A DNA stretch of 17,114 bases from Candidatus Bathyarchaeia archaeon (GCA_050010515.1 JBEKKX010000046.1:1-17114); one strand, 5' to 3'. Positions 3,517 through 15,136 are shown, counted from the first letter of the stretch. The notes: generated from the letters alone by a model not told the origin. Program-made: numbers and translations.

Positions 3517-3690
3517 CTTTCATTTTTCCATCCTGAGCGGTTTTTCTTGCTTATAATTCAAAGCAGTCTTAAGTCTATTTCCCCTCACTAAGATAAACAA
3601 AGCTATGCAGTTTAGCTTCAGGTTTGCAGGATCAAAAAGGGCGGCTTTGTCCGTTTCGCATATTAATGGGAAGTGCTACATGAAATTGCA

Positions 3691-4506
3691 ATGAAGAAGT
3701 CGTCAGTCATAGCGATCTTGCTTATAGTGGTCATTATTGTTTTGAGCGCTTCAATACTGATTATCTTTAACAGCAATAACGCTTCAGCCAAATCCACTGC
3801 AACGTATTACACTTACGCAATAGTTAACACTTATCCGCACGATACAAATGCCTTCACAGAGGGACTCGTGTACTCAGATGGCTTTCTCTACGAGAGCACA
3901 GGACTTAACGGTAATTCAACTCTACGCCGCGTGGACTTGACCACAGGCAATGTACTGCAAGAGTACACTTTGCCAACCCAGTATTTCGGCGAAGACATAG
4001 CCATCGTCAACAACACCATCATACAGCTAACTTGGCAATCAAACATAGGCTTCATCTACAACAAAACCACATTTGCCGTGCTGGGAAATTTTACTTACCC
4101 CACGCAGGGTTGGGGCTTAACCTTTGACGGCAAAAACCTAATCATGAGCGACGGCACAGACCACCTCTATTTCTTGAATCCAACAACGTTTCAGCAGACA
4201 GGACAAATCCAAGTCCATGACGGAAACACATCCGTAGTAAACATCAATTCGCTAGATTACATCAACGGTGAAGTTTACGCCAACATCTGGCTAACAAACA
4301 CAATCGCCATAATCAACCCAGAAACTGGACAAGTCAAAGCTTGGATAAACCTCACAGGACTACCAGACGAAAACAATCCAAACCCAGAAGCCGTGCTTAA
4401 CGGCATAGCATATGACCAACAAAACAACAGACTCTTCGTAACAGGCAAAGATTGGCCAAACATCTACCAGATAAAACTAATTCCGCAAACTAACCAAACA
4501 ACCTAA
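3691..4506 (+). CDS. Glutaminyl-peptide cyclotransferase (type I, plant/bacterial beta-propeller QC), exported or membrane-anchored
   Basis: Motifs YPHD..AFTEGL, LYESTG, FGE, QLTW, GWGLT, MSDG, YANIW, VLNGIAYD and VTGKDW, with an N-terminal hydrophobic helix. ATG 3691 is preferred over GTG 3673 because a TATA-like ATATTAAT lies at 3660-3667. Confidence 0.92.
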   Translation: MKKSSVIAILLIVVIIVLSASILIIFNSNNASAKSTATYYTYAIVNTYPHDTNAFTEGLVYSDGFLYESTGLNGNSTLRRVDLTTGNVLQEYTLPTQYFGEDIAIVNNTIIQLTWQSNIGFIYNKTTFAVLGNFTYPTQGWGLTFDGKNLIMSDGTDHLYFLNPTTFQQTGQIQVHDGNTSVVNINSLDYINGEVYANIWLTNTIAIINPETGQVKAWINLTGLPDENNPNPEAVLNGIAYDQQNNRLFVTGKDWPNIYQIKLIPQTNQTT

Positions 4507-5520: not shown

Positions 5521-6012
5521 ATGAAGTATTCGGGAGATCTTGGCTTGTCGAACGACGTCAGTGTGGAGCTTGAGAGGACCACCTTCAGTGTTTATTTGTT
5601 TGTGGCTAAAAAAGGCAAGCCTGTTGGCCCAAGGGATGTGATGCGTGGTGCGCATCTTAGCAGTCCAAGCGTGGCTTATCGGCATCTTCAGAAACTTGAA
5701 GATTCGGGACTATTAAAGAAAAACGAGTATGGTGAATACTTACTCAAGAAGAAAATGAGGGTCAATGGATATCACTGGATTGGTCGACGCCTCTTGCCTA
5801 ATGCAATGTTCTATTTCTATTTTTTCCTCGGACTCTTCATTACCGAAATTGTGATTTTAGCAATTCATTACGCGGTCGAAACCTACGAGTTCAAGATCTT
5901 CTTCGCGTTAGGTCTTTCAATAACGGCGATCGCCATGATCCTCTTCCTTAAAGAGGGATTATCGTCGTTTAAGAAAATAGAGAAAACGTTAGCACCTAGC
6001 CAAGATGAATAA
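5521..6012 (+). CDS. Membrane-tethered winged-helix transcription regulator (LexA-like DNA-binding domain plus 2 C-terminal TM helices)
   Basis: VYLFV..GKPVGPRDVMRGAHLSSPSVAYRHLQKLEDSGLLKKNEYGEY is a wHTH with a wing. It is followed by hydrophobic AMFYFYFFLGLFITEIVILAI and IFFALGLSITAIAMILFL. Alternative start TTG 5545 after GGGAG. Confidence 0.85.
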   Translation: MKYSGDLGLSNDVSVELERTTFSVYLFVAKKGKPVGPRDVMRGAHLSSPSVAYRHLQKLEDSGLLKKNEYGEYLLKKKMRVNGYHWIGRRLLPNAMFYFYFFLGLFITEIVILAIHYAVETYEFKIFFALGLSITAIAMILFLKEGLSSFKKIEKTLAPSQDE

Positions 6013-6126: not shown

Positions 6127-6171
6127 TGTTCCAGCAGTGGAACAAATTGTTCCATGGCGAGAGTAATATAC
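6127..6171 (+). promoter_or_regulatory. Conserved operator-promoter element, copy 1
   Basis: TGTTC-CAGCAGTG-GAACA-AAT-TGTTC-CATGGC-GAGAG-TAATATAC, upstream of the beta-propeller gene. Confidence 0.85.
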
Positions 6172-6202
6172 ATTCGAGGTCAAAGTATAGTTGGGGTTTA
6201 GC

Positions 6203-7657
6203 GTGTACAAAAAGGCAATATTGATATTTTCCGCAGTTATCCTGCTGTCAAGTTTGTATCGGATTCACGGTGCTTCAGCGTTCTTGAATCCTGTTTCTGT
6301 CAATGCTGAGGGTTTGGTTGTTGGCATACCGGTAATTGTTATCGTAAGCGCAGGATTAGCCGTGTACTTCGGAAAAAGAAAACCTCTGAGCAAGGCTTTT
6401 TCAGCGTTTCTGATAGCGGTACTCTTGGTTTCGGCGTTATCCGGAGTAGCGCTCGCGGTTTTAGGAGCGGAGATTCCCGTCACGTTGTCGTCTCCTGTTG
6501 AGTTGCAGACTAATTTGACGGGCGAAATGGGGTACTGTGTCTTTCAACTTGCAGATGGAAGTTTGGTTTTGAACACGGCCAACCAATCCTGCACGTTTCT
6601 CATTAAACTTGACTCTTCAAACCATGTGTTGTGGACCAGGACAATTCGTATCGGTCAAGAAATCACGAATCTCACTCGTCTTTTACCTACAAGCGATGGG
6701 GGCTTCGCTTTGGCGGGGCTCGTTGATAACATGTACGTGTTGGTGAAAACCGATTCTCAGGGCAACATTCAATGGACCAAAATGTTCAGTTCGGGAGCTC
6801 CGATAAACTATTTTATGTCGATTATTCAAACTAGGGATGATGGTTTTGCCATTGCTGGTTTCGGCGAGAAAGTTTTAGAAGGCTTGGGCGCGATTTGGTT
6901 TGCCAAAACAGATTCATCCGGAAACCTGGAGTGGAACGAGACTCTTTCGGGGCAGGTGGCTGCTTGCCCATCAACCATCATCCAAACGCCGGATGGCGGA
7001 TACATTATTTCTGACGTCAGCTATTCTTTTGTTCCGAATCGGGGTTTCTTCACGCTTATCAAAATGAACGCGACTGGAGATGTACTTTGGATCAAAAATT
7101 ACGGCGGCGAAGGCTACTACTTTCAACCCGAGTGCAACCTCGCTATAGCCACGAAAGACGGCGGGTACTTAATGGTGGGTTACCTTTGGGATAAGAGCGC
7201 GTGGGTAGTCAAAACCGATGCTGAAGGCAATATGCAGTGGAACCAAACATACGGCGCCAAAGACAGCTCAATAACTTGTGCCCTTGAAACCCAAAGCGGA
7301 GGATATATGCTCCTGGCCATTTCAAACCTAACGGATGTCGGGTTAATCATGATCGATAAAGCCGGCAACGAACTTTGGAACATGACCTTTCCAGGAGTCA
7401 CCTTGCCATGGGGGTTGGAGTCAAACTATAATTCCCTTATCCCTGCAAAAGACGGCGGCTATATTGTGGTGGGTTCAAAAAATCAGTCCGTATGGCTTGC
7501 AAAACTTAACTATCAGGATAACAGGTCGATTGCGCTTCAATTCCTATCGATTGCGGATGTAGCGTTGGCTGTTGCTGCGATTGCGACGCTTTTGATTGCA
7601 CCGAGAAAAAAAAGACAGCCCGACGATCAACCCGACCTAAAACAAGCAGCATATTAG
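6203..7657 (+). CDS. Membrane-anchored cell-surface beta-propeller repeat protein
   Basis: Seven repeats of about 45 aa, consensus IIQTxDGGY..AG...W(L/V)VKTDxxGNxxWxxT. Three N-terminal hydrophobic segments, and a C-terminal TM followed by RKKR. GTG 6203 is preferred over TTG 6191 from its distance to the TATA box. Confidence 0.85.
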   Translation: MYKKAILIFSAVILLSSLYRIHGASAFLNPVSVNAEGLVVGIPVIVIVSAGLAVYFGKRKPLSKAFSAFLIAVLLVSALSGVALAVLGAEIPVTLSSPVELQTNLTGEMGYCVFQLADGSLVLNTANQSCTFLIKLDSSNHVLWTRTIRIGQEITNLTRLLPTSDGGFALAGLVDNMYVLVKTDSQGNIQWTKMFSSGAPINYFMSIIQTRDDGFAIAGFGEKVLEGLGAIWFAKTDSSGNLEWNETLSGQVAACPSTIIQTPDGGYIISDVSYSFVPNRGFFTLIKMNATGDVLWIKNYGGEGYYFQPECNLAIATKDGGYLMVGYLWDKSAWVVKTDAEGNMQWNQTYGAKDSSITCALETQSGGYMLLAISNLTDVGLIMIDKAGNELWNMTFPGVTLPWGLESNYNSLIPAKDGGYIVVGSKNQSVWLAKLNYQDNRSIALQFLSIADVALAVAAIATLLIAPRKKRQPDDQPDLKQAAY

Positions 7658-7692
7658 GTTACTACCGATAATAAAAAAGCTCATACCACATG

Positions 7693-7718
7693 CGTTCTCG
7701 CGACAGAACTAAGTGTTC
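7693..7718 (+). promoter_or_regulatory. Degenerate copy of the operator without BRE/TATA
   Basis: CGTTC-TCGCGACA-GAACT-AAG-TGTTC keeps the N8/N3 spacing. Further TGTTC, GAACA and GTTC half-sites follow at 7734-7751. Confidence 0.55.
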
Positions 7719-7980
7719 CGAAGGGCAGAAAAGTGTTCCCGAACAAGGTTCGTTATGCGATGTTGACTAAAGCGGGGTGTGTAACATATAATGGGACATA
7801 ACTATGTTTTATGGGTTTTCGCCCTTATCCAGAAGGTTGCTCTTAGGAAAAGTTTGCCCCAGACTGAAGAAATAAAAAGTCCGTTAATTGTGAAATTAGA
7901 AAAAAAGGAAACCTGTCGCTTTTGGTTGCCGCTATTTCTTGCAACAGAGCAAAACCGAAACACGGAAACCTGCTAAAGGC

Positions 7981-8025
7981 TGTTCTTCTTGCGGAACACT
8001 CTGTTCTCTGGGGAGAGCTATATAG
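7981..8025 (+). promoter_or_regulatory. Conserved operator-promoter element, copy 2
   Basis: TGTTC-TTCTTGCG-GAACA-CTC-TGTTC-TCTGGG-GAGAG-CTATATAG, ending 41 nt before ATG 8067. Confidence 0.85.
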
Positions 8026-8066
8026 CACGTGCGTAGCAATATTATTGGTGTGGGAAAAGAAAGTTT

Positions 8067-10151
8067 ATGAAATCCGACAAAAAACGGTTCGTCCCTGCTC
8101 TTCTTCTGTTAGCTTTAGTCACTATAATGGTTCTACCGGAATGCGCGATGGCCTTTTCTAACGTTCCGTTTCTCGGCTCTTCGGTTCCAAACGTTTCAAT
8201 GGTCTCAACGAACTCGCTGACAGCTACAAAAACAATAATCGTTCCTAACGACTACCCGTCCATAAACGACGCCATCGGAAATGCCTCGGCAGGCGACACA
8301 ATAGTGGTTCGAAGCGGAACCTATTTTGAAAACCCGATAATTGACAAACCATTGACGCTGCAAGGCGAAAACAGCGCGAACACTATAGTGGTGGGAACAG
8401 GCAACTCTTTAGGAGCCAGCGTTTTCACGATTGCGGCAGATAACGTGAAGATTTCAGGCTTCACCATCACAAGCGTCAACTATTCAGCCTCTGCCAACTA
8501 CGCTTACGGCGTTATGATTGAAGGAGACAACTGCATAATAACTGGCAACAACATAGTGAATACGTTGTCAGGAATCTTTTGTTCAGTCCAGTCCTCCACC
8601 TTAATCACCCAAAATAACATAACTGGGAATCACGCAGAACTTCTAAATGCGCACAACGACGGCATCGAATTCTACGGTGGCTTCAACAACACCATCTCAG
8701 AGAACAACATAACAAACAACACGGGTTCTGCCATCGCCATCATAGGCTATTCAGACAATATAACAGGGAACAACCTGTCGCAAAACACTATAGGCATAGG
8801 GATGAGTGCGACTTACTCAGTAATTTTCAGAAACAATATAATTGAAAACAGCAATTCAGGCATTTACCTCACAGGCTCCAACAACGCCATATCCGCGAAT
8901 TATATCGCTAACAACAAATACGGTATCTGTTCACTCTCGAGTTTTGGCTTATCCAGCAATAACACGATATTCCATAACGACTTCGTAAACAACCAGCAAA
9001 ATGCGTATTCGACCTCGCCTTACAACATCCAAATTTGGGATGAAGGCTATCCTCTGGGAGGAAATTACTGGAGCGATTACTCGATAGTTTGTCCTAACGC
9101 AACAGAGATTGCTAATTCTGGAATAATGAATTTGCCTTACACAATTTGCGCCAACAACACTGACAAATACCCGCTCATGGCGCTTTTTGACGCCTCAAAC
9201 GCCGTCACTCCAGCTGAAAAAACTCCACCAACTATCGGCTCCAACCATGTTGCTGGATCATGGAGTTTTGGCAGTGTTGAACCTAACGGTGTCACGCCCG
9301 ATGCGACAGGAAATAACCCAGCAATTTTGGGGAATGAGACTGGTACCTATTCAACTCTGGTGACTGCGTTAGGGGGTGAATGGTCTCCTGCTAAGTTAGT
9401 TGAAGGCAAGTTCGGCGAAGCTCTATACTTTAGTGGAGACTCATATGCGTACGTTCCAGCGTCGCCCAGCTTAACCATTCCAGCTGATATCACCATCGAT
9501 GCATGGATCAAAGTGAATCAATTCAAAGACGTGACTTACAACAATATTGTGATCGAATTCGTGAGTACGACCACAGAATATCCAATTACTGCAACTAGGA
9601 TTCTTGGACTTGCTATAAACGGCGTCGCGCCCAGCAACAGCACCTCCCCAACTTTGGGAGTTCTGCGCGGCTACGTAACAACCGACACGGGAGGCTTCAA
9701 CGAAATAGACACTACCCAACCACTTTCTCTAAATGAGTGGTATCACGTCGCGTTTACTCGCAGCACCCAAACAGGCATGCACATCTATGTTAACGGAGTA
9801 GAACAGAATGTGACAGTCTTCGCCGGAACTCAGAATCCCACTGGCTCAATAGAACCGACTACAGGCCTGTACTTTGGGCATGACTCAATAAGCACCTTAG
9901 AAGATGTCCAAATCCTTAACGTGGCCGCAGAACCAACAAGCACACCTATCTGGCTACAATGGTGGTTCTGGACCCCAGTAGCTGCCGCTTTCGCAGTATT
10001 AGTAGGAATGGTTTACTATGTGAGGAAGAATGGCATCAAACAAAACACCGCAATTTCAAGGTCTCCTCAAATGCTTAGCCCTGTACATTCGAGTTGGGAA
10101 TTAGGAAAAAACCTGTCAGCACCAAATAACGGACATAAAAATCAAAGCTAA
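8067..10151 (+). CDS. Cell-surface protein: NosD/CASH-type parallel beta-helix plus LamG/concanavalin-like domain and C-terminal TM anchor
   Basis: Signal peptide, then IIVPNDYPSINDAI...GDTIVVRSGTY.EN..IDKPLTL.GE, Asn-ladder repeats (I..NNI..N..GI) and GNYWSDY...DKYPL. The LamG-like part reads GKFGEALYFSG..TIDAWIK..WYHVAFT..IYVNG. The anchor is WWFWTPVAAAFAVLVGMVYYVRK. Confidence 0.88.
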   Translation: MKSDKKRFVPALLLLALVTIMVLPECAMAFSNVPFLGSSVPNVSMVSTNSLTATKTIIVPNDYPSINDAIGNASAGDTIVVRSGTYFENPIIDKPLTLQGENSANTIVVGTGNSLGASVFTIAADNVKISGFTITSVNYSASANYAYGVMIEGDNCIITGNNIVNTLSGIFCSVQSSTLITQNNITGNHAELLNAHNDGIEFYGGFNNTISENNITNNTGSAIAIIGYSDNITGNNLSQNTIGIGMSATYSVIFRNNIIENSNSGIYLTGSNNAISANYIANNKYGICSLSSFGLSSNNTIFHNDFVNNQQNAYSTSPYNIQIWDEGYPLGGNYWSDYSIVCPNATEIANSGIMNLPYTICANNTDKYPLMALFDASNAVTPAEKTPPTIGSNHVAGSWSFGSVEPNGVTPDATGNNPAILGNETGTYSTLVTALGGEWSPAKLVEGKFGEALYFSGDSYAYVPASPSLTIPADITIDAWIKVNQFKDVTYNNIVIEFVSTTTEYPITATRILGLAINGVAPSNSTSPTLGVLRGYVTTDTGGFNEIDTTQPLSLNEWYHVAFTRSTQTGMHIYVNGVEQNVTVFAGTQNPTGSIEPTTGLYFGHDSISTLEDVQILNVAAEPTSTPIWLQWWFWTPVAAAFAVLVGMVYYVRKNGIKQNTAISRSPQMLSPVHSSWELGKNLSAPNNGHKNQS

Positions 10152-10253
10152 AATTAATTTAGAAGACCAGTAGTTCAAATTTAACGGAAATCCAGCCTAC
10201 TGAAATCCAATTTTGGAAAAAATTTTTGATGGAAATTTTGTTTAAATTTTGTT

Positions 10254-10268
10254 GAAAAGCATTAAATA
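10254..10268 (+). promoter_or_regulatory. BRE/TATA promoter of the ECF operon
   Basis: GAAAAGC-ATTAAATA lies 34 nt upstream of TTG 10303, with an SD-like AGGGG before the start. Confidence 0.55.
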
Positions 10269-10302
10269 CTGATACCGCTGACTAAGAGGAAAGGGGATTC
10301 AT

Positions 10303-11007
10303 TTGAGTGAGGGAGGAAAGGCAACATCTAATACGGAAAGTAAGTATCCTTGGAGCAACTACACTTTAAAATTGGGCAGGGGAGAACCCGTTTCTACAAC
10401 GCAGTATGTGCTATATGCGGTGCAGATCGCGGCAATAATAGTTTTGTCATACTTAAGCGTCTCTTTGCTTGGTCCATTAAGCTACTCAGGCGTCTCATTG
10501 TTCTACTTTGTGTACCCCTTCTTCTTAGTGTTCACAATGTGGTGGGGAATCTGGGGTATAGCGTCTGCGTATATCGGCTGTGTACTCGGAGCAGGATTGA
10601 TGGTCGGTTTAGGCGTAGTTCCATCGTTAGCATACTCGATAAGCGACTTCATACCGCCGCTAATCGCATTCATAATTTACCGCGGGCTACTATCGAAACA
10701 AGGCTTTGACCCATTATGGAGAGACTTAACCGACAAAGAAGTTGGCGGCGTCAAAACAAAGAGAATAGGTGCATGGTTCTGGTTTATACTTATAAACGGA
10801 CTCATACTTAACGCAATCAGTGCAGAGCTAGGCATTGGAATACAATACCAATTGGGACTGATTCCAGGCAACGCATATTGGGTCTGGTGGGCAGGATGGT
10901 TCGTAGGCGATTTGCTGGCAATGGTGATAATAACTCCGGTGCTTGTCAAGGGACTTACAAACCTTGTCGAAAGGCAAGGACTAGTCAATCACGGCTGGAT
11001 AACTTGA
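10303..11007 (+). CDS. Putative ECF transporter substrate-binding (S) component
   Basis: About 6 TM helices and first gene of an S-T-AA' operon. GIASAYIGCVLG and WFVGDLLAMVIITPVL recall QueT/MASE1-type membrane domains. Substrate unknown. Confidence 0.7.
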   Translation: MSEGGKATSNTESKYPWSNYTLKLGRGEPVSTTQYVLYAVQIAAIIVLSYLSVSLLGPLSYSGVSLFYFVYPFFLVFTMWWGIWGIASAYIGCVLGAGLMVGLGVVPSLAYSISDFIPPLIAFIIYRGLLSKQGFDPLWRDLTDKEVGGVKTKRIGAWFWFILINGLILNAISAELGIGIQYQLGLIPGNAYWVWWAGWFVGDLLAMVIITPVLVKGLTNLVERQGLVNHGWIT

Positions 11008-11046
11008 GAACAACTCTTCCTTAACTGAACAATTTAAAGGGGAAAG

Positions 11047-12111
11047 TTGTTGGCAAGCCCAGACGAGGAAGCACGTGCTTCCAAGAAGTACGTGTGCACC
11101 TTTATTTTTTCTATGCGAACAGGAACCCCAATTGAAAAGCTACATGTTATAACAAAATTCTTAATGATTGCAGTCATGTCCGTGCTGGCTCTTTACATGT
11201 TTGATATCCCGGTCTCAAAAGGCGGTCCGGACATCGTTGGATTGATCCTCTTGTTAATTCTTGTATTTACCCTCTTGATAATCTCAAGGACCGCAAAGCA
11301 TTTAGTAAACTCGTACTTAGTATTGGCGTTGCCAGTGCTTTTCGGTGAATTCTTCTGGTGGCTCTTCTTTAACGGTTCACTACCCGGGGCGAGAGTGATT
11401 TTTTATCTGTGGCCAGGATTTTTGCCAATAGGAATATCAACAATAGTTCTTGTAGGCGTTTTTAGCCTCGTATATTATAAGACACGAAACATTGGCCTGT
11501 CCCTTGTGCCCGCATTACTGCTATGGTGGTTCACTATCATGCCCAGCGCTCTTAGTTTCTCGCAAACGGCAACATGGGTCAGAATTCCCATCGGGGCAAA
11601 TTACGCTTTTTCGCTTCCTGAATGGTCAACCATGGTTGCGTTATCGAAAGCGCTTGGATATGGAGTGCTAATTTACACATCATTTCTTTTTCTTTTAACA
11701 ACAAGAGACGTAGAGATTGCTGGAGCCCTCAGACAACTGCGTCTTTCATTTCGGAAGGCATTTTTCGTTGCATTGATGTTCAGAAATCTAAACACAATAC
11801 TACTTGACTATCAGGACATCAAAATTGCCCAAACTGCGCGTGCCGCCAATGTAGTCAGGAAAAGCATTTTTTCGAAGATAATAGACCTCGCCTATGTATC
11901 TATTCCGTTGGTTGCAACCATGATAAGGCGGTCTACAGAGATGGGTGTAGCGCTCTACGCTAGGGGTTTTGAAGCATCAAAAGGCATGACGGATTATAAA
12001 GAGACAAAACGACTAAGCGTCGTGGACTTCACGATATTGGCGATATTAGCAGCCTTCTTAATATACGAGGTTATCCTTGGACACTCCATCACTTCCTTGT
12101 TCATGAGGTAA
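11047..12111 (+). CDS. ecfT: ECF transporter transmembrane (T) component, extended
   Basis: N-terminal KLH..TK and LLTT...EI..AL..LRL. Coupling-helix motifs AQTARA and IPL....IRRS..M..ALYARGF. Confidence 0.9.
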   Translation: MLASPDEEARASKKYVCTFIFSMRTGTPIEKLHVITKFLMIAVMSVLALYMFDIPVSKGGPDIVGLILLLILVFTLLIISRTAKHLVNSYLVLALPVLFGEFFWWLFFNGSLPGARVIFYLWPGFLPIGISTIVLVGVFSLVYYKTRNIGLSLVPALLLWWFTIMPSALSFSQTATWVRIPIGANYAFSLPEWSTMVALSKALGYGVLIYTSFLFLLTTRDVEIAGALRQLRLSFRKAFFVALMFRNLNTILLDYQDIKIAQTARAANVVRKSIFSKIIDLAYVSIPLVATMIRRSTEMGVALYARGFEASKGMTDYKETKRLSVVDFTILAILAAFLIYEVILGHSITSLFMR

Positions 12112-12116
12112 AAGAA

Positions 12117-13907
12117 ATGTCGGTATTGGAAGTCAACGATTTCTGGTGGAAATACCGATCTTACGTAGGAGTAGAGAACCCCTACACGCTAAAAGGTTTA
12201 TCCTTCACCGTAAATAAAGGAGAATTCTTCGGAATCATCGGACCCAGCGGAGCAGGCAAGACTACACTTTGCTACGCTTTGACTGGAGTAATACCTCACG
12301 TTTTCACAGTTCCATACGGCAAAGAAAGAGAGCACATAAAAGGTGAAATAAAACTATTCGGGCAAACACTAACTAAAGTCGAAGCTGCGACCGATGAGAA
12401 GACAGGCAAAGTCGTTGATAAAATTATCGGCATGAAACAAACAGCGCCAAGGGTTGGACTGCTGCTTCAAGATCCTGAGAATCAGTTTTTAAGAATGGAC
12501 CTTCTGCATGAAATTAGCTTCGGAATGGAGCTTTTAGGGCTATCTGGGAGCGAAATTGAGAGAAGAGCTAAAGAAGCGCTTGAAATAGTCGGGCTGGGCT
12601 CGCTGTGGCCAATCGCGGATCTCGTTCACCCAAGTGAATTGTCTGGTGGGCAAAAGCAGAGGGCTGCAATTGCTTCCTTCATTGCGCTGAGACCTGAACT
12701 GTTGGTCTTGGATGAACCCATGTCTAACCTGGACCCCGAAGGGAAGCTTAGCATAATACAGGCTATTGACAGCATAAGAAACGAATTTGACATAACAATA
12801 ATTGTTGTCGAGCACAACCCTGAGGTAATACAAAAATACGCCGACAAGGTGCTTGCCATAAACAATGGGCAAACGATTGCGTATGGAACCACAGAACAGG
12901 TTTATTCTCAGTGGAAACTGTTTGATGAAAATGGACTCTACTCCTCAGACATAGCGAGGATCGGGTGGCAAGCAGGTCTAAGTTACAATGGAAGGGTTCC
13001 CTTTACTGTCGATGAAATGCTTGAAGCATTCGATGGCAGAAACCAAAAGTCTCTAGCGCCGAACCTTGAAGATGACCCAATAGACCAATCGGCTCAGGAA
13101 ATAATAAGCGTTAAAGACCTCAACTTTTCGTATGAAGATGGAACACGTGCCCTAAGAGGAGTAACTTTCGCCATAAAACAAGGAGAATACGTAGGGCTCA
13201 TAGGGCAAAACGGGGCAGGCAAATCGACCATATCCAAGATAATCAGCGGCTTGTATAAGAAGTTCCAGGGCGAAGCAAAAGTAATGGGAATGGACCTACG
13301 AGACAAGAAAGTGATTCAGAAAATACCCTGCTACGTTGGATACGTATTTCAGAACCCTGACAACCAGATTTTCATGAGAAAAGTCTACGACGAAGTAGCT
13401 TACGGCCTGAAAAACCTAAAGACGCCACAGCAAGAAATAGACCAAAGAGTCAAGGAAGCGTTAAAGAGCGTTGGTTTACTCTCAAAAATTGATGAGGACC
13501 CAATGTTTTTGGGAAAAGGCGAAAAAAGAAGACTAACTGTAGCTTCTATTCTTGCCATGAACCCGAAAATAATGATAGTTGACGAGCCAACAACAGGTCA
13601 AGACTTCAGAATGTCCGAAGACATAATGAACCTGCTTGAAGAACTAAACAAGGCTGGCACCACAATCTTAGCTATCACTCACGACATGACACTGGTCTCC
13701 GAACACACGAAAAGAGTCATAGTAATGCACAACGGAGCCGTAACCTACGATGGATCCACAAGAGGCTTCTTCTCAAATGCAAAATTACTCGACGAAGCCG
13801 GCATAATCCCCCCCATGGCAGTCAGACTAAGCCATGAATACAAGAAAAAAAACCCCTCTTCCCCATGCCTAATGAACGCAAAAGAGTGGGTCGCAGCATT
13901 AAAGTAA
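12117..13907 (+). CDS. ecfA: ECF transporter ATPase with two fused ABC domains
   Basis: Domain 1: GPSGAGKT, LQDPENQF, LSGGQKQR, LDEP, VEH. Domain 2: GQNGAGKS, FQNPDNQI, LGKGEKRR, VDEPT, ITHD. Confidence 0.95.
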   Translation: MSVLEVNDFWWKYRSYVGVENPYTLKGLSFTVNKGEFFGIIGPSGAGKTTLCYALTGVIPHVFTVPYGKEREHIKGEIKLFGQTLTKVEAATDEKTGKVVDKIIGMKQTAPRVGLLLQDPENQFLRMDLLHEISFGMELLGLSGSEIERRAKEALEIVGLGSLWPIADLVHPSELSGGQKQRAAIASFIALRPELLVLDEPMSNLDPEGKLSIIQAIDSIRNEFDITIIVVEHNPEVIQKYADKVLAINNGQTIAYGTTEQVYSQWKLFDENGLYSSDIARIGWQAGLSYNGRVPFTVDEMLEAFDGRNQKSLAPNLEDDPIDQSAQEIISVKDLNFSYEDGTRALRGVTFAIKQGEYVGLIGQNGAGKSTISKIISGLYKKFQGEAKVMGMDLRDKKVIQKIPCYVGYVFQNPDNQIFMRKVYDEVAYGLKNLKTPQQEIDQRVKEALKSVGLLSKIDEDPMFLGKGEKRRLTVASILAMNPKIMIVDEPTTGQDFRMSEDIMNLLEELNKAGTTILAITHDMTLVSEHTKRVIVMHNGAVTYDGSTRGFFSNAKLLDEAGIIPPMAVRLSHEYKKKNPSSPCLMNAKEWVAALK

Positions 13908-14143
13908 ACTTCCAGAAATATTACTTATTTGCAGATTGGAACCTGTCATAAATCGTTATTCGCGATTTCGAATCGATTCCACGGTTCTCTGAGACACGAT
14001 GTTTACCCTTGTCATCAAGAACGACTAAGTTGCCATATTCAAGGTTATTAAAACCTAATTTAGCTAAGAACAAATTTGCTAAAGAGTTTTAATTGCATTT
14101 ACTTCGTCGCTAATTAGAACCAAGAACACACAACAGCCTATGC

Positions 14144-15040
14144 TTAGCGCTTACGATTCTTGAGGTAGATCAGAGAACCACTGATGACAACAGCTGCTGA
14201 GGCTACTAAAACTGTGACTAATGCTGTCGGGAAGGGTTCTGGCGACTGAGAAGCTACTGATGTCACGTTAGTCACGGCAAAGTTGACCGTTTGACTGGCG
14301 CCAATGTTTCCAGTATCATTCCAGACATAGACCGTCAGAGTATGTGCTCCGACAGATAATCCTGTTAGTGTAGTATTTCCAGCAATCGTGACGTTACTTT
14401 CCCCGTCCAAGCTGTATGCGGCTGTGATGATGTTTTGGTTAACGGTAAAATTCAATGGAACATCTTGTGTAGTGTATGTTTCGTTTTCTATTGACAGGTT
14501 CGTTATGGTTGGCGGAGTCGAAGTTTGCGGTGGCGGCGTTGAGTTTTGCGTTACAGCGCCCGTGCTTATGGAGAAATCGACTGCATCAACCCAAGCAGCA
14601 TAATAATCTGCGCTGCCAGGAGCTGTTGGTTTGAAGGGTGCGCCTGGAGGGTTTGCGCCATGGTAATCGTTGAGGTTGGCTTCTTCATAAATTGTTAAGC
14701 AGTGTGAGCCATCAGGTAATTCGGGTAACTGCACAGTTCCAGTCGCTGGGCAAATGAGTTCGCCGAACACGGGGTCATTAAGCACCAAAGGTATAGGACC
14801 ACCATAGTTTCCATCAATGCTATAATTCAACGAACATTGCAATCCTTCTCCCCAACCGAAATTAACATTCAACGTTAGAAAATTGGAATCATAGGTTGTA
14901 TTAACAGGGGACAAAATTGTAACTCCACCAGAGAAAGAAACTGAATTATTGGAATCCGCCTTAACAACGTGAACGCCCATTGCAAGCGAAACGAGCAGCA
15001 CGGAAATAACGAGGGCCACCAAAGCCGTTTTCAGATTCAT
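14144..15040 (-). CDS. Cell-surface glycoprotein with two Ig/FnIII-like repeats and a PEPFPT-TM-basic C-terminal anchor
   Basis: Signal peptide (..VHVVKA). Two related units I.S..N.TY....L....YS(I/L)DG....L..L..G.H.LT(I/V)Y. Eleven N-X-S/T sequons. C-terminus PEPFPTALVTVLVASAAVVISGSLIYLKNRKR. Confidence 0.85.
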   Translation of the reverse strand: MNLKTALVALVISVLLVSLAMGVHVVKADSNNSVSFSGGVTILSPVNTTYDSNFLTLNVNFGWGEGLQCSLNYSIDGNYGGPIPLVLNDPVFGELICPATGTVQLPELPDGSHCLTIYEEANLNDYHGANPPGAPFKPTAPGSADYYAAWVDAVDFSISTGAVTQNSTPPPQTSTPPTITNLSIENETYTTQDVPLNFTVNQNIITAAYSLDGESNVTIAGNTTLTGLSVGAHTLTVYVWNDTGNIGASQTVNFAVTNVTSVASQSPEPFPTALVTVLVASAAVVISGSLIYLKNRKR

Positions 15041-15091
15041 GTTTCATCCAAGCCTCCATTGTTAAGCGCTACTTACATCTAATACCAAGCG

Positions 15092-15136
15092 GCATATTAC
15101 TCTCCTTATGGAACAGTCTGTTCCACAACTGGAACA
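15092..15136 (-). promoter_or_regulatory. Conserved operator-promoter element, copy 3
   Basis: The minus strand reads TGTTC-CAGTTGTG-GAACA-GAC-TGTTC-CATAAG-GAGAG-TAATATGC. It is 37/45 identical to copy 1 and oriented toward the 15040 start. Confidence 0.85.

Follow-up and report, generated by a model that had tools for sequence, protein, structure and literature searches.

A 45-bp operator–promoter element ahead of surface-protein genes in Bathyarchaeia, and a candidate membrane-anchored regulator beside it

The DNA analysed here, a 17,114-nt stretch from a Candidatus Bathyarchaeia archaeon (the window), carries three copies of a 45-bp composite operator–promoter element, each ahead of a gene for a surface protein, and a small gene, P0004, that encodes a candidate regulator. 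Copy 1 lies at 6127–6171 on the + strand, with half-sites at 6127–6131, 6140–6144 and 6148–6152, the box GAGAG at 6159–6163 and a TATA-like octamer, TAATATAC, at 6164–6171. Copy 2 (7981–8025, +) has its GAGAG at 8013–8017 and the octamer CTATATAG at 8018–8025, and copy 3 (15092–15136, −) reads from 15136 down to 15092, with TAATATGC as its TATA-like part. P0004 occupies 5521–6012 (+), its stop codon 114 nt ahead of copy 1, and the three target genes lie at 6191–7657 (+), 8067–10151 (+) and 14144–15040 (−). An earlier note on this DNA had described the pattern TGTTC-N8-GAACA-N3-TGTTC-N6-GAGAG plus octamer, and it is indeed exact at all three places: the 20 box positions and the spacer lengths are identical and the spacer sequences differ.

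The element was previously called tripartite. It is better described as four half-sites forming a double palindrome, the last of them overlapping the B recognition element (BRE) and TATA box and appearing in relatives as a TAGAA-CT variant. It consists of two tandem 18-bp palindromes, TGTTC-N8-GAACA, and its 39 bp as a whole are two-fold symmetric. The palindrome centres are 21 bp apart, which places both palindromes on one face of the DNA, and the distance of 21 bp between the TGTTC boxes is as the earlier note gave it. Among 81 core sites with enough flank from relatives, chosen on boxes 1–3 alone, the fourth box is GAGAG at 45, TAGAA at 22, another nAGAn at 9 and absent at 5; at 76 of the 81, nAGAn stands at the same N6 spacing with a TATA-like octamer after it. 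A C after the box gives the TAGAA class the reading TGTTC-N8-GAACT and thus a near-perfect fourth half-site. Whatever the class, this half-site stands at the BRE position, directly against the TATA box, as GAGAG in this genome and as TAGAA-C or C/TAGAG in relatives.

These copies are far more numerous than chance allows. With up to 2 mismatches permitted, the 15-position core has 7 matches in the whole window against 0.07 expected, a number reached in 0 of 200 shuffles. Three are the exact copies, three are reverse-strand shadows of them, present because the whole element is nearly palindromic, and one is a degenerate three-box core (7693–7718, +) with 2 mismatches (CGTTC..GAACT..TGTTC) that lacks the GAGAG/TATA part. 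Across the genome (2.38 Mb in 66 contigs, estimated 98.5% complete; labelled G000, with the window as contig C46) there are six exact 20-position copies against 4.7 × 10⁻⁶ expected, no near-copies with 1–2 mismatches, one with 3 and four with 4 (all reverse-strand shadows). This gap between 0 and 3 mismatches indicates a sharply bounded motif rather than the tail of a fuzzy distribution. Single TGTTC-N8-GAACA dyads number eight, comprising the six composite sites, one coding instance (C10) and one intergenic instance (C18:14809), and this genome-wide scan for single dyads gave no sign of a larger hidden regulon. At 76 sites no position is conserved in the 30 nt before the element or in the roughly 65 nt after it, which speaks against both a mobile element and a cassette that was simply inherited. 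The analysis confirms that the 45-bp element is real and under selection, a cis-element joined to a TATA-like box at fixed spacing. The degenerate core sits between target gene 1 and copy 2, recurs at the orthologous loci L048 and L049, and could be either an auxiliary site or the remains of a promoter.

The promoter part of the element looks conventional except at the BRE. The tRNA promoters of this genome read AAAC-TTAAAT or CTAAA, with an A-rich BRE, and the octamers of the element, such as CTAAAAG, CTAAATA or TTAAAAG in relatives and the three given above in the window, match that BRE/TATA pattern and are therefore ordinary TATA boxes. The earlier view that they are non-consensus is accordingly not clearly right; the unusual part of the promoter is the G-rich GAGAG at the BRE position, which departs from the A-rich norm. 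An open reading frame (ORF) of at least 60 aa follows the element at 80 of 82 sites. Downstream start codons have a median motif coordinate of 77.5 (interquartile range 68–81), the octamer ending at 45, so that they fall about 23–36 nt past the octamer; a Shine–Dalgarno-like 4-mer is present at 25 of 76 sites, around coordinate 68. Taken with the canonical distance from TATA box to transcription start, these positions imply very short leaders. The distances of 31, 41 and 51 nt to the start codons reported for the window stand if gene 1 starts at GTG 6203; an earlier in-frame TTG lies at 6191. The genome has two TBP and two TFB genes, which identifies the organism as an archaeon.

Beyond this genome, the element is confined to a narrow set of lineages. 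A scan of related genomes found the 15-position core in 23 of 41, against 2 matches in total for a reversed control. Within the same genus it is present in 20 of 24 genomes; in a second family, f7, both genomes have it (the copy in one of them, G030, lacking box 4), and in ten other families of the order 0 of 14 genomes do. A search of G030 and of the four genomes of the genus without the motif, with one mismatch allowed, returned only five one-mismatch matches, in G002, G015 and G018, and none in G006; the sole match in G030 was the exact copy found earlier. In an even draw of 301 genomes across the class Bathyarchaeia, the 18-position form occurs in 25, namely 18 of 48 in family f1 plus G000, and 6 of 12 in f7; it is found in 0 of 240 genomes of other families, and the reversed control gave 0 everywhere. 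A full-text literature search found no published description of the element or its protein family in Bathyarchaeia.

The genes downstream of the three copies encode different proteins with a common layout. Target gene 1 encodes 488 aa when read from TTG 6191, with GTG 6203 the likelier start, and its product is a secreted repeat protein with a C-terminal transmembrane (TM) segment and a basic tail. Target gene 2 encodes 694 aa, with a signal peptide, a NosD/right-handed beta-helix, a LamG domain (Laminin_G_3) and a C-terminal TM segment. Target gene 3 encodes 298 aa, with a signal peptide and many N-x-S/T sequons, and ends in a PEPFPT motif, a TM segment and a KNRKR tail. The three proteins are non-homologous, as had been proposed (pairwise BLASTP E ≥ 0.16), and the proposed combination of signal peptide and C-terminal TM anchor is borne out in that each has an N-terminal hydrophobic leader, a C-terminal hydrophobic stretch and a basic tail. 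The fold labels fared less evenly: beta-helix/NosD and LamG are recovered by Pfam in the 694-aa protein, and the beta-propeller and Ig-like labels of the other two were confirmed by none of the tools, no Pfam family scoring above cut-off in either. The N-terminus of the 488-aa protein (window 6191–6500) has, between two signal-peptide-like segments, a further hydrophobic stretch that ends in YFGKRKP and is similar to the C-terminal anchors of the other targets; this looks like either the fusion of a small anchored ORF from upstream or an N-terminus with three TM segments.

Outside the window, the element precedes genes for 443-aa and 605-aa beta-helix-like proteins and a 311-aa LamG-like protein, and all 6 element-preceded genes in the genome encode a hydrophobic leader, a C-terminal hydrophobic segment and a basic tail. 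We extended the comparison to relatives with a crude hydropathy test for signal peptides and TM segments, using a crude set of 2133 genes of this genome as background. A signal-peptide-like N-terminus is present in 73 of 80 downstream ORFs from 23 genomes, against 453 of the background genes, and the enrichment suggested in the earlier note is found, with signal peptide plus C-terminal TM in 54 of 79 complete downstream ORFs against 244/2133. Bitopic-looking genes make up 106/2133. The phrase ‘the surface proteome’ used in that note is too broad, as 6 genes are marked out of 106–244 with the same crude signature; in this genome the element picks out just those 6 genes, a small part of the surface proteome that spans several unrelated families. 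Single-linkage BLAST clustering of the 69 downstream proteins with 100 aa or more, across relatives, gave 25 clusters; the largest holds 30 modular beta-helix/LamG/Ig-like proteins and includes 5 of the 6 targets of this genome.

The gene at 5521–6012, absent from the earlier note, encodes a protein of 163 aa with a predicted winged helix-turn-helix (wHTH) followed by two predicted C-terminal TM helices. An AlphaFold2 model built from 36 homologues (predicted local distance difference test score, pLDDT, 81; predicted TM-score, pTM, 0.62) places helices at 19–31, 37–44 and 49–61 with wing strands, giving a three-helix wHTH over residues 19–75 (pLDDT ~87–91), then a beta hairpin of about 18 residues between wing and TM1, and then two long hydrophobic helices (94–116 and 122–157) joined by a loop of about 5 residues. 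The model thus shows a predicted DNA-binding wHTH domain and two predicted TM helices in one polypeptide. Pfam gives HTH_20, IclR and LexA_DNA_bind (E 0.0089), all below cut-off, and NCBIfam gives lexA (E 0.032). Foldseek matches cover the wHTH domain only, with 55–70 residues aligned to IclR, MarR, Zur and LexA at root-mean-square deviations of 1.4–2.9 and probabilities of ~1.0 but E > 0.001; against the PDB it returned no full-length match, and a sequence-profile search of the PDB returned nothing significant (E 0.62 and 0.95). Pfam identified no HAMP domain in P0004, in which only the ~18 residues lie between wing and TM1.

The layout of P0004 recurs across the 36 aligned homologues, many of which begin at the position that corresponds to its residue 9; the recognition helix, SSPSVAYRHLQKLE, is nearly invariant among them, and E109, H116, E120, T121 and K125 are conserved in and around the TM hairpin. 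The family counts 2095 members at E ≤ 0.001 in a large protein collection, mostly unnamed or automatically named ‘ArsR family’, and a precomputed Pfam match (PF01726) is present in 4 of the 120 homologues listed. Two distant paralogues in this genome share the wHTH–2TM layout and have a different recognition helix. One of them (C18:12380–12733) lies about 2 kb upstream of C18:14809, the sole intergenic single dyad outside the composite sites, which is followed by a TTTTAAA box.

Several lines of evidence link this family to the element. In the class-wide sample, strong P0004 homologues (E ≤ 1 × 10⁻²⁸) occur in 34 of 301 genomes, namely 27 of 48 in f1 plus G000, and 6 of 12 in f7, and in 0 of 240 others. 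Set side by side, the two tables show a strong homologue in each of the 25 motif genomes and neither feature in 267 genomes; within one genus, g16, six of seven genomes have both and one has neither. Regulator and element are also neighbours. Using 73 strong homologues from 24 genomes, and counting operators with at most 2 mismatches and with nAGAn, we found an operator on the same strand 0–500 nt past the stop codon of 10 homologues, against 0.025 expected (Poisson 2.5 × 10⁻²³). Coordinates give more adjacent pairs in other genera (G190:C13, G132:C15, G070:C15, G172:C33 and G305:C2) and one divergent pair (G070:C1), and in orthologous loci the first target gene is sometimes missing while the adjacency of regulator and operator is kept.

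The homologues fall into five recognition-helix clades, three of which adjoin an operator subclass of their own. Clade AYRH, which has one member per genome and includes P0004, adjoins GAGAG sites; clade AYRN adjoins TGTTCCA-N4-TGGAACA ... TAGAA sites; and clade A(Y/H)WH adjoins TGTTCTA..TAGAACA ... (C/T)AGAG sites. Scored per genome on exact-match sites in 26 genomes, several of them incomplete, and uncorrected for phylogeny, the association is clearest for class C with clade IV (counts 4, 0/2, 20; p = 0.001), followed by class B with clade I (12, 1/5, 8; p = 0.011) and class A with clade II (14, 4/3, 5; p = 0.078). Among the 10 off-diagonal pairings other than A-I, none is significant (p ≥ 0.149). 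In this genome the AYRH clade is represented once and the AYRN and WH clades not at all, and every site is of the GAGAG type. Sites of the A(Y/H)WH type often stand both before and after a unit of gene plus regulator; at L083, L100, L119 and L158 the order is operator, gene of ~300–440 aa, regulator, operator, next gene, and the sandwiched regulator may therefore be co-transcribed with its target and autoregulated.

We therefore favour, with a probability of about 0.62, a lineage-specific regulon in which the 45-bp composite operator–promoter is bound by two dimers of a small membrane-anchored wHTH regulator, here P0004. The two dimers would sit on the two palindromes, on one face of the DNA, with the proximal dimer touching the BRE position. 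P0004 would thereby hold the promoters of a few surface-protein genes at the membrane and control recruitment of TFB and TBP there. The operator subclasses of relatives appear to be served by paralogous regulators whose recognition helices are altered, and the covariation of box 4 with the recognition helix suggests that the regulator itself reads box 4. As P0004 has no extracytoplasmic domain, any signal would be sensed within or at the membrane. The broader regulon idea of the earlier note is supported, the element standing ahead of genes for secreted, C-terminally anchored proteins and being conserved in two families; its more specific proposal of an activator acting at a weak TATA box is not established, its premise about the TATA box is weak, and the proximal dyad overlaps the BRE.

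Several observations weigh against assigning the element to this regulator. Nine genomes have a strong homologue and lack the exact motif, and G020 and G002 (the latter with 1 mismatch) have a site with no strong homologue listed, these genomes being 65% and 89% complete, respectively. Three of the 10 adjacencies are orthologous to one another and to the pair seen in the window. About 70 of 82 sites have no regulator gene within 4 kb, and 63 of 73 regulator genes have no site in the flanks fetched (~1 kb for most loci). All of the co-occurrence counts are phylogenetically non-independent. The GAGAG/AYRH association is weak, and GAGAG with AYRN (A-I) gives the same table and the same p value (0.078), so that the A-II pairing is not specific. 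Finally, the helix-turn-helix assignment consists of sub-threshold Pfam matches and domain-level fold matches with E > 0.001.

The sign of regulation is the point on which the favoured regulon meets its strongest competitor. We lean towards activation, at about even odds, with repression at roughly one chance in three, because the spacing to the TATA box is invariant, the BRE of the main class is G-rich and non-consensus, and ArnR and ToxR-type regulators offer precedents. Against this lean, the proximal dyad overlaps the BRE and the fourth half-site of the TAGAA class is intact, which fits occlusion of TFB. The same element and the same membrane-anchored regulator could thus constitute a repressor system, a somewhat unlikely but serious alternative, in which the proximal dimer sits on the edge of the BRE/TATA and blocks TFB and TBP until a membrane or envelope signal arrives. 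Archaeal operators that overlap the BRE/TATA are typical of repressors, and here the second dyad covers the BRE position with its last half-site abutting or overlapping the TATA box; the TAGAA class combines a near-perfect GAACT with a consensus-like BRE/TATA, and hence an intrinsically strong promoter; and the covariation of the recognition helix with box 4 suggests contact by the regulator at the BRE position. However, a TATA spacing fixed at 76 of 81 sites across many gene families is stricter than occlusion needs, the BRE of the main class is G-rich and non-consensus, and ArnR, the characterised membrane-anchored analogue, is an activator (PMC6396743).

Alternatives that dispense with this regulator fare less well. 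The operator may be real and another regulator bind it, the wHTH–2TM genes being neighbours or co-regulated members of surface-gene islands, which would agree with the small share of family members that directly adjoin a site (10 of 73) and with the non-significant GAGAG/AYRH association; we consider this doubtful, as adjacency is ~400-fold above expectation in several genera and three paralogue clades, motif and strong homologues share a two-family distribution in which every motif genome has a homologue, and recognition-helix variants track operator subclasses. That the element is instead a promoter class for an alternative TBP/TFB pair, with GAGAG or TAGAA as a special BRE and no dedicated regulator, is very improbable: the two TBP and two TFB genes, and the invariance within each class of the box directly before the TATA, would suit it, whereas a BRE variant explains neither three perfect palindromic half-sites reaching 37 bp upstream nor their 21-bp phasing. 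Least credible of all, and barely so, are promoter cassettes inherited with a duplicated gene family, or mobile-element remnants, without shared regulation. Copy 2 and the copies on C12 and C47 do share extended upstream and 5′-untranslated-region similarity, and 30 of the 69 downstream proteins, 5 of the 6 targets of this genome among them, lie in one single-linkage cluster; yet there are 25 downstream clusters, no two of the three window proteins are related, the boxes have stayed invariant amid diverged spacers and flanks, mismatches jump from 0 to 3, and the element is kept across two families. A mobile element such as a miniature inverted-repeat transposable element was also sought at the 76 sites and left no conserved flank, terminal repeat or duplication around the copies. 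We reject both the mobile-element and the pure-duplication readings on the diverged flanks, the 25 clusters and the unrelated window proteins.

The closest analogue of the regulon favoured here, judged by likeness of architecture rather than by sequence comparison, appears to be the ArnR/ArnR1 system. ArnR and ArnR1 of Sulfolobus acidocaldarius are membrane-bound one-component activators of the archaellum promoter, with an N-terminal HTH and two C-terminal TM helices. They regulate surface appendages and depend on two boxes in the flaB promoter, inverted repeats of the form TCGAC-N5-GTCGA between −43 and −84 (PMC6396743). P0004 resembles ArnR in its predicted N-terminal HTH and two C-terminal TM helices and in having lineage-specific paralogues, and its putative sites resemble those of ArnR in that two tandem inverted-repeat boxes lie upstream of the core promoter at every site and the targets are cell-surface proteins. 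P0004 differs in being, at 163 aa, too small to hold the HAMP and sensor domains of ArnR. The boxes of the element have 18 bp (TGTTC-N8-GAACA) and those of ArnR 15 bp (TCGAC-N5-GTCGA), and the proximal box of the element runs into the BRE/TATA, whereas that of ArnR ends at about −43. The targets here are anchored surface proteins, where those of ArnR are type IV pili.

More widely, P0004 can be set beside the transmembrane transcription regulators (TTRs), of which ToxR, TcpP and CadC are bacterial examples. TTRs were surveyed by Demey et al. in 2023, with a recognised DNA-binding domain required for inclusion (PMC10269533). TTRs share with the P0004 family a DNA-binding domain and TM regions in one polypeptide, a lineage-specific expansion and, for P0004 putatively, action on DNA from the membrane; unlike them, P0004 has no extracytoplasmic sensor domain, its inter-TM loop being about 5 residues long. 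P0004 has no Pfam match above cut-off, so the family may have been missed under that inclusion rule. The word ‘Bathyarchaeota’ appears 0 times in the main text of the survey (PMC10269533), and P0004-family members might be present in its supplementary lists.

Two soluble or sequence-level comparisons are also instructive. Ptr2, TFB-RF1 and GvpE are archaeal factors that act at upstream-activating sites next to the BRE/TATA. Like their sites, the element has a fixed position immediately upstream of a sub-optimal BRE and two sites in helical phase; unlike these factors, which are soluble and of Lrp-type or other families, the candidate factor here is membrane-anchored. The earlier note had pictured a Ptr2/TFB-RF1-type site, which would lie wholly upstream of the BRE, and this picture fails at the fourth half-site, which occupies the BRE position. 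In Escherichia coli, LexA binds the SOS box CTGT-N8-ACAG. The half-sites of each palindrome in the element are likewise 8 bp apart, a spacing that would suit a LexA-like wHTH dimer, and the wHTH of P0004 is weakly LexA_DNA_bind-like. Unlike LexA, P0004 has no S24 peptidase domain and ends in a TM hairpin, and its presumed targets have nothing to do with DNA damage.

The most useful new point is the wHTH–2TM regulator family that neighbours the element, together with its covariation with the operator. Bathyarchaeia are abundant; we know of no genetic system for them, and our literature search turned up no work on their gene regulation. The analysis offers a predicted regulator–operator pair for this class that can be tested as a soluble 90-residue domain against 45-bp DNA, and it singles out a part of the surface proteome, made up of beta-helix, LamG and repeat proteins, that would be co-regulated and probably serves substrate or surface contact. 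The element also supplies native promoter parts for future genetics, a minimal wHTH–2TM architecture that is invisible to Pfam is added to the transmembrane transcription regulators, and the natural covariation of operator and recognition helix can be used for studying specificity. A more speculative and on balance unlikely extension is that the regulators constitute a paralogue-specific operator code, each recognition-helix variant reading its own version of the double palindrome, and that the conserved charged residues E109, H116, E120 and K125, in and around the TM hairpin, sense the load of anchored proteins or the state of the membrane, coupling transcription to insertion and anchoring. 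Such a system would provide feedback together with a transertion-like tethering.

Some further features of the targets and of the locus deserve mention. Three of the 6 targets (the 298-aa protein and those on contigs C12 and C47) end in (E/K)PFP(T/I), a TM segment and a K/R-rich tail, and targets in relatives have IPEF, IPEL or IPEY ahead of the TM segment. Both kinds of C-terminus resemble what we take to be a PEF-CTERM-type archaeosortase sorting signal; NCBIfam reported no PEF-CTERM-type domain in the window proteins, and no search aimed at an archaeosortase gene was made. An energy-coupling factor (ECF)-type transporter module at 10303–13907 (+), between targets 2 and 3, lacks the element; it combines a double ABC ATPase with a CbiQ-like T component and a membrane protein. 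A glutamine cyclotransferase gene (window 3673–4506, +; Pfam E 4 × 10⁻⁹⁵) lies some 1.6 kb ahead of the regulon genes. In several targets the probable signal-peptide cleavage site carries A-Q (VKAQ, AKAQ), and [AGS]Q occurs at residues 19–45 in 18 of 76 downstream proteins, which hints at an N-terminal pyroglutamate on surface proteins.

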